The notes under the pieces were generated by a model, which saw only the letters and a list, made by a program, of their open reading frames with translations, was not told where the DNA came from and ran no database searches. From a virus (lineage: Duplodnaviria > Heunggongvirae > Uroviricota > Caudoviricetes), in the IMG/VR virus record IMGVR_UViG_2778261353_000006: a stretch of 14,509 nt of DNA; one strand, written 5' to 3'. Position numbers and translations under genes: made by a program. Positions 3,093 to 10,122 of this stretch are shown here, one piece after another (the stretch's first letter is position 1; every line of letters starts with the position of its first letter).

Positions 3093-3255
3093 AACGACCT
3101 CACGTTTCGATAATTTTCACCTCACCACCTTCAGGTTCCAATCATCGGGTGGCGAACTGTGCAGGGTTGGAACTACCGGTCGAAACATCCGGCGCACCTT
3201 TCGGTGCCCCCACACAGCCCGCCATAAATCGCGAATGTGACTGTGCTTAGCGCAT

Positions 3256-3275
3256 AAAAAAACCGCCAGCGCGGT
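3256..3275 (-). terminator. Rho-independent terminator
   Basis: Minus strand: ACCGC-GCTG-GCGGT stem-loop followed by TTTTTTT, downstream of the DUF551 and 27-aa genes. Confidence 0.55.
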
Positions 3276-3361
3276 ATGCACCGTTTCGATATCCGGGGTT
3301 CCAATCCCGACGCCAGATTTTGCTGGCGCGTCGGAAATATAGCCCCGGATTAGTAATTACG

Positions 3362-4469: not shown

Positions 4470-4580
4470 CCATGCGTTAAACTCTTCCGTTGAAATATGT
4501 TCTCTACCATCACAGAATTTTTCATATTCAGGATGCGTCCAGCAGCCATATTCATCACGTACTACTGGTATTTCTCTATT

Positions 4581-4835
4581 TCATTCATTTCTGTTCTCCC
4601 ACGTTTGCAGACTTTCACCACAGAACGGACAAAATGAAACCCGCACTGGTAATTTAGAAAATTCACCGGAACGCAACATCACCAAATCAGGGTCGCGAGT
4701 TAAATTCTCATTCCAGATTTTGTATATCAGCAGACCTTTTCGCGTCGTGTATTCAGCATCATGCTCAAGGGCTTTTGCCAGTACCGCACATGGTTCTATC
4801 TGATTGCTATTAACCTGACATTTTGATTCGCTCAC
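4581..4835 (-). CDS. hypothetical protein (84 aa from GTG), C-terminal CPFC motif
   Basis: The track ORF begins at GTG 4904 inside the upstream gene. GTG at 4835 has AGGAGG 7 nt upstream and overlaps the upstream stop (GTGA), so it is the more plausible start. Confidence 0.5.
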   Translation of the reverse strand: MSESKCQVNSNQIEPCAVLAKALEHDAEYTTRKGLLIYKIWNENLTRDPDLVMLRSGEFSKLPVRVSFCPFCGESLQTWENRNE

Positions 4836-7592: not shown

Positions 7593-8000
7593 ATGAACGA
7601 GAAAACTTTAGGTCAACGAATTAGAGAAAGACGCAAACAGGTTGGTTTAAGTCAAAACGATTTAAGCAAAGCCGCTGGCGTATCTGGCTCATCAATTTCA
7701 CTATGGGAAAGCGACCATACAGCCCCGCGTGGGCAAAATTTGCATCGCCTGGCTGAGGTATTGCAATGTTCACCAACTTGGATACTGTTTGGTGACGAGG
7801 ATAAAACACCAGATCCACCAGTTGCACTCAACAGCGCCTTAGACTTATCGGAAGATGAGTTGGAGATGTTGCGATTGTATCGCGCACTTCCAAAATCAGA
7901 GCAGCAAGCACAAATCAGCGAACTCCGTGCCCGCGTTGAGAATTTTAATCGCCTATTCACCGAGCTACTAGAAGCTCGCAAACGTAACAAACATCAGTAA
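7593..8000 (+). CDS. dicA: DicA-like immunity repressor (XRE HTH, 135 aa)
   Basis: ATG at 7593; N-terminal HTH (LSQNDLSKAAGVSGSSISLWE); the LQCSPTWILFGDEDK motif and 135-aa length match E. coli DicA as recalled. Confidence 0.85.
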   Translation: MNEKTLGQRIRERRKQVGLSQNDLSKAAGVSGSSISLWESDHTAPRGQNLHRLAEVLQCSPTWILFGDEDKTPDPPVALNSALDLSEDELEMLRLYRALPKSEQQAQISELRARVENFNRLFTELLEARKRNKHQ

Positions 8001-8346: not shown

Positions 8347-8475
8347 ATGGATTTCAACACAATCATGGAAAAGGCTTACGAAGAATACTTCGAAGGCCTT
8401 GCCGAAGGCGAAGAAGCCCTCAGCTTCAGCGAATTTAAACAGGCGCTTTCCAGTTCGGCAAAATCTAACGGCTGA
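8347..8475 (+). CDS. ydfB: YdfB-like small acidic protein (42 aa)
   Basis: ATG at 8347, AGGTGAG SD 6 nt upstream; MDFNTIMEKAYEEYFEGLAEGEEALSFSEFKQALSSSAKSNG. Not in the track (too short). Confidence 0.7.
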   Translation: MDFNTIMEKAYEEYFEGLAEGEEALSFSEFKQALSSSAKSNG

Positions 8476-8504
8476 TAAGCGAAGCAGCACCGCGAGGAAT
8501 CAGT

Positions 8505-8723
8505 ATGCAGAAACGAGAACCCGTCATCATCGCGCCAGACTATACCGATGATGAACTTTATGAGTGGATGCACCAGAAAATTAAGGCTGCGCAGGATCTG
8601 AAATGGGCCAATGAAGCCAGGGCTAAGCAGGCTGAAAATCTGTCCGCTCTGGAGCAGGATATCACCAATCTGGAAAAAGCAGCGGCATTAAGCATTGCCA
8701 GAATGATTACATACCCACGTTAA
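8505..8723 (+). CDS. ydfC: YdfC-like protein (72 aa)
   Basis: ATG at 8505 with GAGGAA SD; size and position match ydfC of Qin. Confidence 0.8.
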   Translation: MQKREPVIIAPDYTDDELYEWMHQKIKAAQDLKWANEARAKQAENLSALEQDITNLEKAAALSIARMITYPR

Positions 8724-8745
8724 TGGTTAACCAACGAGGCTAATA

Positions 8746-9153
8746 ATGGAATTTAAAGATTTACCAAAAGAAATCCAGATAATTGCTGCAACGACACTCG
8801 GTGATAGTCTGGTGAAAATTGACCCGGCATACACCAAAAAAGAAACCATCGATAATATGATTCGTAATGTGCGCAATGCTTTTTCAGGGCTATATGGTTC
8901 TGATAATCAAAAACAGGAAAACGATATTGATGAACGGGTAATTTCTGTTTGCCTGAATGGTCATGTTATTTCAGCAATCAGAACAGAAACGGCAACTGTT
9001 TTTGATTATCTCTGCATGATTCAGAGTCTTGCTGATGTTCTGTTGAAATCAAAAGATTTAGAAAACGATGCAAATTTACAGGGGCGCACAATAGCACATC
9101 CATATGCACATACTTTAGGCTCTGTGGATATCAAAGATCCCACAAATCTTTAA
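8746..9153 (+). CDS. hypothetical protein (135 aa), AT-rich cargo gene
   Basis: ATG at 8746, GAGG SD, 22 nt after the ydfC stop. Visibly lower GC than its neighbours; no family recognised. Confidence 0.7.
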   Translation: MEFKDLPKEIQIIAATTLGDSLVKIDPAYTKKETIDNMIRNVRNAFSGLYGSDNQKQENDIDERVISVCLNGHVISAIRTETATVFDYLCMIQSLADVLLKSKDLENDANLQGRTIAHPYAHTLGSVDIKDPTNL

Positions 9154-9364
9154 TGAAATAGTTAACGCAAATTGTACTTGCTCTTTCAGTTGCTTTCAGA
9201 ATACGCGTTGAAACTGCTGGCGGTAATTTAGTATTCCATTTATTAAAATCATGCCCGGGAAAGTACTCTTCGAAAATACTTTTAACTGCAGACTCGCCTA
9301 TTGAAATGCTGCTTACCATGCGATTTTGATAAAGGCATTTAGCAATAAGAGTTGATTTTAACAT
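9131..9364 (-). CDS. hypothetical protein (77 aa), convergent with the 135-aa gene
   Basis: ATG at 9364 with AAGGGTGA upstream; AT-rich; 3' end overlaps the 135-aa gene by 23 nt on the opposite strand. Confidence 0.5.
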   Translation of the reverse strand: MLKSTLIAKCLYQNRMVSSISIGESAVKSIFEEYFPGHDFNKWNTKLPPAVSTRILKATERASTICVNYFIKDLWDL

Positions 9365-9687
9365 TCACCCTTCTGAGGGTTGGTAATTAAGGAGTTCTCC
9401 ACGGGTGAGGTGGAGTGCGTGCGCCGGACACGGGTGAGCATCCGGCACTGACAGTTTACTGAAAGGATATATCCCTGAAAAGTCAGGGCATAACACGAAA
9501 GCGTACGGCGAAGGCCTTCACCTATGAGGCTTGTCGTTAAATTTAATTCGACCGTACGCTTCCGGTTGTGGCAATCCGCGAAATGGAGCGGCGGTAAGTA
9601 TGGCAGGGGTACTATTCTCCCTCCCCTGTGGAGCACCGGGTTGTCAGGTTGACCATACGCTTAAGTGACAACCCCGCTGCAACAACC

Positions 9688-9750
9688 CATGTTGATTACC
9701 TTTTGGCGGGTATCCGTTTTTTGTTTTCCCTTGTGATACCCGCCCTTTTT
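9688..9750 (+). ncRNA. dicF: DicF-like sRNA (5' end approximate) ending in an intrinsic terminator
   Basis: Perfect 10-bp stem GGCGGGTATC (9705-9714) / GATACCCGCC (9735-9744) followed by TTTTT (9746-9750). The ...UUUGGCGGGUAUC... core and the location about 185 nt upstream of dicB match DicF of Qin as recalled; the 5' part differs from K-12 DicF. Confidence 0.5.
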
Positions 9751-9756
9751 AAAGTG

Positions 9757-9914
9757 AATTTTGTGATGCGGTGAATGCGGCTCAGCGCACGCGGAACAGT
9801 TAAAAAGGCCAGTTGACTTCCGTATTGGTTCTTATGGGTGGGTTCTCTGTATCCGGCGTTAATTGTTAACTGGTTAACGTCACCTGGAGGCACCAGGCAC
9901 CGCATCACAAAATT
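9757..9914. repeat. 17-bp perfect long-range inverted repeat enclosing about 124 nt between DicF and dicB
   Basis: AATTTTGTGATGCGGTG (9757-9773) and its exact reverse complement CACCGCATCACAAAATT (9898-9914); internal GTTAAC-based palindromes; the dicB SD lies just 3' of the distal arm. Confidence 0.7.
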
Positions 9915-9933
9915 CATTGTTGAGGACGCGATA

Positions 9934-10122
9934 ATGGAAACGTTATTACCAAACGTTAATACGTCTGAAGGTTGCTTTGAAATTGGTGTCAAAATCAGTA
10001 ACCCAGTATTTACTGAAGATGCCATTAATAAGAGAAAACACGAACGGGAGCTATTAAATCAAATATGCATTGTTTCAATGCTGGCCCGTTTACGTCTGAT
10101 GCAAAAAGGATGCTGGCAGTGA
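9934..10122 (+). CDS. dicB: cell-division inhibitor DicB (62 aa)
   Basis: ATG at 9934 with GAGGA SD 7 nt upstream; METLLPNVNTSEGCFEIGVKISNPVFTEDAINKRKHERELLNQICIVSMLARLRLMQKGCWQ matches DicB as recalled. The track start at 9838 is a spurious extension. Confidence 0.85.
   Translation: METLLPNVNTSEGCFEIGVKISNPVFTEDAINKRKHERELLNQICIVSMLARLRLMQKGCWQ

Follow-up and report, generated by a model that had tools for sequence, protein, structure and literature searches.

Genes A and B of a Qin-like prophage: a conserved, convergently overlapping pair and candidate exclusion/escape or effector/antidote module

Several described systems resemble in part the two convergent genes analysed here, which we term A and B and which lie in the early-left operon of a lambdoid prophage region of 14,509 nucleotides (nt; IMG/VR record IMGVR_UViG_2778261353_000006, referred to in its full length as the window). 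One of these is SieB-Esc, known from P22 and lambda and from the Rac prophage, where sieB lies in the opposite orientation; Esc is the product that provides escape from SieB. Like A and B, these genes are found in the early-left region near immunity genes. SieB of P22 is expressed by the prophage, and P22 itself escapes its action (PMC10883804). A similar logic, in which the phage carries a product that counteracts its own lysogenic function and so permits escape, is proposed below for A and B. SieB, however, is a membrane protein of ~160-190 amino acids (aa), whereas B is a predicted soluble protein of 77 aa that has no Pfam match, no expected transmembrane segment and no detected similarity to a characterised family. 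Furthermore, Esc is an in-frame internal product of sieB, while the putative antagonist of B is encoded by a separate gene on the opposite strand.

In pore-forming colicin operons the colicin gene is SOS-induced and the convergent immunity gene is expressed constitutively from the opposite strand, and the arrangement of an inducible gene and a small opposite-strand cognate gene ahead of a killing or lysis gene is similar to that seen here, as is the association of variable C-terminal domains with matched partners. Colicins, however, are large secreted toxins with membrane immunity proteins, whereas the products of A and B are small, predicted to be cytoplasmic and devoid of a toxin domain; the fixed 3' overlap is also a feature of A/B that colicin operons do not share. 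Prophage toxin-antitoxin (TA) modules, exemplified by RalR/RalA in Rac, hok/sok, relBE and ParE/PaaA2, are likewise small, co-inherited, two-component units in accessory positions, and type I modules share the convergent overlap; indeed hok/sok, ParE/PaaA2 and HigB modules were found in the window or in sister prophages. A and B differ from these systems in that the antisense partner is a conserved protein and not a small RNA, and in that the genes are convergent with overlapping 3' ends and do not form the co-directional, autoregulated bicistronic operon typical of type II modules. In addition, neither protein matches a TA family, and neither has a recognisable toxin fold or DNA-binding antitoxin domain (helix-turn-helix, ribbon-helix-helix or AbrB). 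With morons and defence genes that are expressed in lysogeny beside the repressor, such as lambda rexAB and BTP1 bstA, the pair shares deviant composition, presence/absence variation, an immunity-region location and, in the case of B outside E. coli, a putative independent promoter. When set against the Hendrix/Juhala description of a moron, deviant composition and presence/absence between similar phages were both evident; as regards autonomous transcription, an extended -10 element lies ahead of B at 14 of 18 loci, not including those of Escherichia coli, and no convincing terminator was found. Unlike rexAB and bstA, the pair is no autonomous insertion, A being one of the genes of the early operon; its synteny extends across bacterial families, which marks it as ancient, and it has no PADLOC match. 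An initial sequence-only reading of the window had taken the pair to be acquired cargo at a moron position; composition and presence/absence fit a moron, but the pair is more than recently acquired cargo, being an old two-gene unit of fixed geometry that occupies the equivalent place in prophages of several genera.

The evidence for a unit comes from a survey in which all fetched loci were scanned with hidden Markov models for the B family and for the family of the C-terminal part of A (A-core). Every assessable B-bearing locus contained a convergent A-core gene, and the two overlapped by 23 nt in 79 of the 82 assessable loci and by 26 nt in the other three. All of the distant A-core loci tested (L011, L094, L099, L100 and L101) likewise carried B in convergent orientation, as a homologue sharing 29-53% identity with that of the window, and with overlaps of 23-75 nt. 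B was never seen without an A-core at any locus examined; the A-core occurs without B in 201-aa proteins, where it is joined to another domain. The pairwise distances of the two families are correlated (Mantel r 0.81, 0 of 5000 permutations), with B, at a mean distance of 0.30 compared with 0.53 for the A-core, evolving about half as fast. The two proteins thus form a unit, strictly paired and inherited together, in which the convergent genes share a fixed 3' overlap. The overlap encodes the terminal residues ...IKDPTNL (stop) of A and ...IKDLWDL (stop) of B and holds a quasi-palindrome, AAAGAT-N7-ATCTTT, which is accounted for by the IKD-like motif at the end of each protein. The possibility that these 23 nt form a conserved RNA hairpin was considered and rejected, as the predicted folds vary by lineage.

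The unit is old and not a one-off acquisition, its distribution spanning Enterobacterales to Burkholderia. B homologues of ~77 aa with 53-70% identity occur in Klebsiella, Dickeya, Xenorhabdus, Morganella, Serratia, Salmonella and Yersinia, and when 1.84 billion representative proteins were scanned in full with HMMER, 163 B-family clusters were returned, nearly all of them stand-alone proteins of 74-80 aa. One cluster derives from Burkholderia ambifaria, in which B and the A-core are 37% and 29% identical, respectively, to those of the window and overlap by 24 nt. The pair occupies the equivalent place in prophages of Serratia, Dickeya, Yersinia, Klebsiella, Citrobacter, Leclercia and Burkholderia; a scan of contigs for the A-core profile using a single peptide pattern returned one locus. 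Within E. coli the cassette that carries the pair, scored as present at a coverage of at least 80%, was found in 646 of 5426 complete genomes, while 2697 have the empty junction seen in K-12, establishing the presence/absence polymorphism among Qin-like prophages that had been anticipated. It always lies directly after ydfC, but the prophage background varies: one example is PPompW/Sp10, the prophage at ompW in the O157:H7 Sakai lineage, and another is the isolated phage Evi, whose immunity region differs and in which kil replaces dicB.

Codon comparison of B across genera gave a mean synonymous divergence (pS) of 0.70, at saturation, and a mean non-synonymous divergence (pN) of 0.23, not saturated, which also sets B, as a protein, apart from the antisense non-coding RNA of type I TA modules. 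Closer pairs gave ratios of non-synonymous to synonymous substitution rates (dN/dS) of ~0.07-0.15 (for example dS 0.35 and dN 0.05 for L078-L083). Both termini are near-invariant in the alignment, with MLKSTLIAKCL at the N terminus and VDSFIKDLW at the C terminus. By these comparisons B is clearly a real coding gene under purifying selection, its length fixed near 77 aa, and the sequence-only claim that the 77-aa open reading frame (ORF) is conserved as coding thus holds; the constraint on both proteins indicates that A and B are real genes and not chance ORFs. The predicted structure of B is that of a soluble protein of five helices, modelled as a monomer with a pLDDT (predicted local distance difference test) of 96.9. 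The most hydrophobic 19-residue Kyte-Doolittle windows score 0.59 in B and 1.31 in A, and with maxima this low no transmembrane segment is expected in either protein. In most of the other genera compared, the GC content of B is 5-12 points below that of its flanks.

Gene A is a composite: only its C-terminal half is the conserved partner of B, and the first 58 residues belong to a module of their own (N-module). A belongs to phrog_1363, a family for which no function is assigned (E 2e-42), and its residues 1-55 also match phrog_9419, 2151, 6937 and 33007 in PHROGs. The N-module is restricted to E. coli and Salmonella prophages, where it is joined to several unrelated C-terminal domains (in proteins P0042, P0044-46 and P0049), and an N-module gene is present in 933 genomes. 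Its predicted structure has a low pLDDT of 39-56; that of the A-core is moderate, at 71-84. In Serratia, Dickeya, Hafnia, Klebsiella, Yersinia, Citrobacter, Erwinia, Pectobacterium, Enterobacter and Leclercia the A-core is a protein of 75-80 aa on its own. A 191-aa Yersinia protein (L010, 5212-5787) and P0034 have the A-core fused to a YdfC-like N terminus, and in Citrobacter-type proteins (P0108 and P0147) its fusion partner is a C4 zinc finger of the ClpX type (PF06689). The YdfC-like fusion provides Rosetta-stone-type evidence that YdfC and the A-core may act together.

In all lineages the pair lies in the early-left (PL-type) operon adjoining a CI/DicA-type repressor gene, with A, often the first gene past the repressor, in the sense orientation and B in antisense. 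Given this position and orientation, transcription of the operon towards dicF/dicB, kil or recombination genes crosses the whole of B in antisense. A has no promoter of its own. Upstream of B, 38-43 nt from its ATG, an extended -10 element of the form TGnTAnnnT (typically TGGTATCTT) is present at 14 of 18 diverse loci, compared with 0.8 expected from shuffled sequences, and is retained even at loci where B is only ~30% identical. Ahead of this element, and overlapping the -35 region, is an inverted repeat, GCC(G/T)G-N13-15-C(C/A)GGC, with CCAC in its loop, which was recognised by eye in the window and at L005, L010, L078-L083, L094, L100 and L101. The counterparts in other genera read GCCTG...CAGGC and GCCGGG...CCCGGC, and one stem position covaries, again as judged by eye. 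This repeat may act as an operator or may form a hairpin in the early RNA. In the Yersinia prophage L010, the non-coding stretch upstream of B also contains a 128-nt tRNA-like Rfam match (4497-4624, minus strand, 38.5 bits).

The position after ydfC is not reserved for A and B. In other Qin-like prophages it holds other pairs, each comprising the shared N-module with a different C-terminal domain and a different convergent small gene. One encodes 201 aa in sense, an almost complete A-core joined to a new domain, and 63 aa in antisense, with a 23-nt overlap (eight E. coli genomes). Another pairs a 208-aa sense protein with an abutting gene for 69 aa (~594 E. coli genomes), and a third a 179-aa sense protein with 80 aa in antisense, overlapping by 20 nt. 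The 63-aa gene (L092) has the same ribosome-binding and upstream sequence as B. The 63-, 69- and 80-aa proteins were rejected as relatives of B (hhalign probability at most 0.2%). All proteins of the alternative cassettes fall into PHROG families with no assigned function, and nothing meaningful was matched in Pfam, NCBIfam or PADLOC. The slot is thus a site where functionally analogous, unrelated sense/antisense pairs replace one another. A second accessory hotspot of the operon region is the gap between the DicA-like repressor gene and ydfA, which in sister prophages contains TA modules (L093, 2694-3172; L096, 821-1488), namely PaaA2-ParE and HigB with a helix-turn-helix partner.

Consistent with the sequence-only claim that neither protein belongs to a recognised family, A and B gave no matches to Pfam, NCBIfam or, for either family, PDB sequence profiles and matched no PADLOC-DB v2 defence model at E<=1; comparison with solved structures and with BFVD viral models likewise brought up no structural relatives. 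Both are already catalogued as hypothetical proteins in RefSeq and PHROGs. In the literature the RefSeq accessions of A and B are not mentioned, papers on the dicBF operon include no genes between ydfC and dicF, and no published description of the pairing, the conserved overlap or the cassette site was found.

The sequence-only reading had suggested a toxin/immunity, exclusion or defence function with antisense control, which is plausible. We tentatively favour a specific form of this idea, based on gene order and conservation, in which A and B would be a cognate, phase-separated module, B serving as an effector in the lysogen and A as its antagonist on induction, either for exclusion and escape or as effector and antidote. 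B, driven by its own sigma-70 promoter with an extended -10, would be transcribed in opposition to the early-left operon and, given this orientation, would accumulate only in the lysogen, where the operon is repressed. Its action in that state would most likely be exclusion, or an abortive-type response, directed against incoming related phages, or else a brake on prophage early functions. A would be made immediately upon induction or infection, and its ~77-aa core would bind and neutralise B, while operon read-through across B, from the 3' overlap onwards, would make polymerases collide and transcripts pair in antisense, so that no further B is made. In E. coli the N-module has been added to the core, and the slot has become an exchange site for pairs of sense domains and antisense genes. 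We infer the timing of expression, the binding of A to B, the identity of the effector and its target. B is favoured as the effector because it evolves more slowly, is predicted to fold autonomously, is never found without an A-core, whereas the A-core can lack B, and can decay beside an intact A. The logic of a B effector and an A antidote points to a likeness with SieB exclusion and escape, with which the orientation and promoter element of B would agree. It is possible, though on balance unlikely, that A/B and the unrelated pairs of the slot together represent an undescribed class of temperate-phage module, in which an antisense lysogeny effector and a 3'-overlapping early-lytic antidote are expressed in a mutually exclusive manner and, in an arms race between related prophages, are swapped as cassettes; in that case the pairs would constitute a novel exclusion/escape or toxin/immunity system whose proteins have new folds.

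It should be emphasized, however, that several observations weigh against this proposal. Neither A nor B resembles a protein known to act in defence or exclusion, or as a toxin or antitoxin. The window, like the E. coli lineage as a whole, has TGGAGAACT where the conserved -10 element is found elsewhere, and a consensus scan of positions 8400-10000 detected no promoter upstream of B (counts at or below chance); terminator-like sites in the same interval also occurred at chance frequency. The B of the window carries R66C at a position that is R, H or K in all 29 other aligned members, and polymorphism of B within E. coli (6 synonymous and 11 non-synonymous changes) indicates mild constraint. 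With respect to a role in active phages, B is present in just 12 of 50,697 deposited phage genomes. Charge complementarity between the proteins (pI 4.9 and 9.0 in the window) was discarded as evidence of interaction because it is not conserved. Finally, E. coli has two diverged A-core alleles (dS 0.35, dN 0.13) beside near-identical B genes (dS 0.02-0.04), which indicates that recombination also cuts between A and B and that tight, short-range co-adaptation is not evident. The degenerate -10, the mild constraint on B, R66C and a frameshifted B beside an intact A in two viral contigs (L087 and L088) together suggest that the module is best preserved outside E. coli and that the E. coli copy, as in the window, may be weakly expressed.

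The main rival to the exclusion/escape proposal reverses the roles of the two proteins. As in colicin operons, A, or its variable C-terminal domain, would be an early effector or toxin directed at the host and made with Kil or DicB on induction, and B a constitutive cognate immunity protein that renders leaky expression harmless. The layout fits, in that an inducible gene and a convergent small gene with its own promoter precede downstream killing genes, and a constant N-module with variable C-domains, each with a different convergent partner, recalls polymorphic toxin/immunity cassettes. The neighbours dicF and dicB are, moreover, toxic to the host (PMC5069750). Against this, the A-core persists without B in the 201-aa proteins and beside the frameshifted B genes, although orphan toxins would not be expected; of the two partners B is better conserved, whereas an immunity protein would not usually be; A showed no toxin-like fold or domain; and in most genera the A-core stands alone at ~77 aa with no N-module. 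We consider this explanation unlikely. Similarly improbable is the view that A and B are independent genes, A an early-left accessory function (for example in host takeover or anti-defence with YdfC) and B a lysogenic-conversion gene, kept together by the overlap alone. Lambdoid early-left regions contain many small accessory genes, the fusions of the A-core to YdfC-like sequences and to ClpX-type zinc fingers suggest partners other than B, the A-core alleles of E. coli diverge independently of B, and charge complementarity is not conserved. Linkage alone, however, does not readily explain why pairing and overlap geometry are retained from Enterobacterales to Burkholderia at 29-37% identity despite rampant phage mosaicism, or why B was never encountered without an A-core.

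A cis-acting role would make the proteins secondary. Transcription from the B promoter, running head-on into the early-left operon, would serve as a safety catch that blocks leaky expression of dicF/dicB or kil. Coliphage 186 provides an established case of convergent-promoter interference, and lambda oop/cII one of antisense control; here the convergent orientation and the promoter are conserved, the downstream genes are toxic, and the slot accepts unrelated antisense genes, that of L092 using the same upstream region. The strong purifying selection on B, its fixed length and its confidently predicted fold show, however, that the protein matters; interference would also leave the co-conserved A-core unexplained, and the 2697 E. 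coli genomes with an empty junction retain dicF and dicB although they lack a cassette. This explanation is quite improbable. Still less probable, in our view, is that the module, although real elsewhere, is a decaying remnant in the E. coli Qin-like lineage, where B would be unexpressed or non-functional. The degenerate -10, the loss of a conserved basic residue through R66C, a non-synonymous/synonymous ratio for B of ~0.5, the frameshifted copies and an empty junction four times commoner than the cassette would all be compatible with decay. In contrast, ~640 E. coli genomes have B as an intact ORF, in several prophage contexts of which O157 Sp10 and phage Evi are examples, its Shine-Dalgarno sequence is retained, and the same ratio remains below 1.

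If the effector/antagonist proposal is correct, A/B would be a widespread, uncharacterised prophage conflict module, carried by ~12% of the complete E. coli genomes, with O157:H7 Sp10 as one example, and by many other Enterobacterales and Burkholderia, whose two phases of expression are hard-wired by gene geometry and not set by a regulator. Whatever the mechanism, the strict pairing of B with the A-core, the conserved 23-nt overlap and the N-module common to alternative cassettes are new for a much-studied locus, and the slot is a cassette-exchange hotspot within the operon of the division inhibitors DicF and DicB.

The features of the locus are listed in Table 1. The annotation of an identical E. 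coli chromosome places the window in the immunity/early-left region of a Qin-like lambdoid prophage, with A and B entered as WP_097343112.1 and WP_097343113.1, both hypothetical proteins. The sizes, strands and tail-to-tail overlap of the two genes given in the sequence-only reading were verified, as was the start of A 22 nt past the ydfC stop (8723), with a Shine-Dalgarno sequence GAGG at 8736-8739. The AT-richness reported there was also borne out by calculation, the GC content of 8744-9377 being 0.368 compared with a mean of 0.478 (standard deviation 0.043) for all 634-nt windows of the 14.5-kb region. This places the cassette within the lowest 0.14% of such windows, the minimum falling at 8741. 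By part, GC content is 0.370 in A and 0.350 in B, and 0.479 in ydfA-C and 0.533 in the dicF leader.

Table 1. Positions of the gene pair, its parts and its neighbours in the window.
Feature	Coordinates	Strand	Remarks
Replication protein P, DnaT-like protein, YdaT-family protein, Cro/DicC		minus	RefSeq order, identical E. coli chromosome
DicA-like repressor	7593-8000	plus	Followed by ydfA, ydfB and ydfC (plus)
ydfC	8505-8723	plus	Context gene
Cassette	8744-9377		634 bp; block not present in K-12 Qin; lowest-GC stretch of the window
Gene A	8746-9153	plus	135 aa; sense strand of the dicA-controlled early operon
N-module of A	8746-8919	plus	Residues 1-58, MEFKDLP...AFSGLY
A-core	8920-9153	plus	Residues ~59-135; conserved partner of B
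A/B overlap	9131-9153		23 nt, tail-to-tail
Gene B	9131-9364	minus	77 aa; antisense to the early operon
B translation-initiation region	9365-9377	minus	AGAAGGGTGA ahead of ATG; right cassette edge
Site homologous to the conserved extended -10 of B	9393-9401	minus	Reads TGGAGAACT, degenerate
Inverted repeat in leader	9423-9446		GCCGG-N14-CCGGC
dicF precursor leader, then divergent element at the dicF position (9686-9760)	9378-9760	plus	
dicB, DUF1482 (ydfD-like) protein, large 3'-5' exonuclease			Downstream of the two hypothetical genes

Alignment with the Qin prophage of K-12 MG1655 (NC_000913.3) supported the sequence-only claim that K-12 Qin has no genes between ydfC and dicF. The flanks are ~97% identical and the 634-bp block, which sits between the ydfC stop and the untranslated leader ahead of dicF, is cleanly missing. 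No direct repeats and no insertion-sequence or att features were seen at the cassette borders on reading this alignment, and recombination exchange within the conserved flanks would be the simpler reading of cassette gain and loss. The sequence-only reading had also pointed to an adjacent structured RNA; such a region is present, but it is the ordinary dicF precursor leader, common to K-12, and Rfam returned nothing in 8700-9400. The canonical K-12 dicBF operon comprises ydfA-ydfB-ydfC-dicF-dicB-ydfD and the DicF small RNA. The window departs from this gene set, since ydfABC, dicB and the DUF1482 gene are kept, two extra genes are present and the body of DicF is replaced.

At the dicF position itself (9686-9760, plus strand), between flanks identical to those of K-12, is a divergent element resembling a small RNA, with a 10-bp stem (GGCGGGTATC/GATACCCGCC) followed by a U-run and a predicted folding energy of -18.5 kcal/mol (z -4.4); the Rfam DicF model gave no match on the window even at E<=10. 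The same allele, unannotated, is present in 158 of the 5426 E. coli genomes. Sakai Sp10 and L092 have other alleles at this position and phage Evi has canonical DicF. With varied alleles between conserved flanks, the body of DicF looks polymorphic. Over the 5' untranslated region of dicB (9743-9966, plus strand) there is a sub-threshold Rfam match to STnc100 (34 bits, gathering threshold 47). Elsewhere in the window, minus-strand Rfam matches above the gathering thresholds at 2301-2471, 3145-3229 and 3256-3342 correspond to sok antitoxin RNA, C4 antisense RNA, isrK and the c4 a1/b1 target, and suggest a P1/P7-type immI-like and isrK/anti-Q-like region in another part of the prophage.

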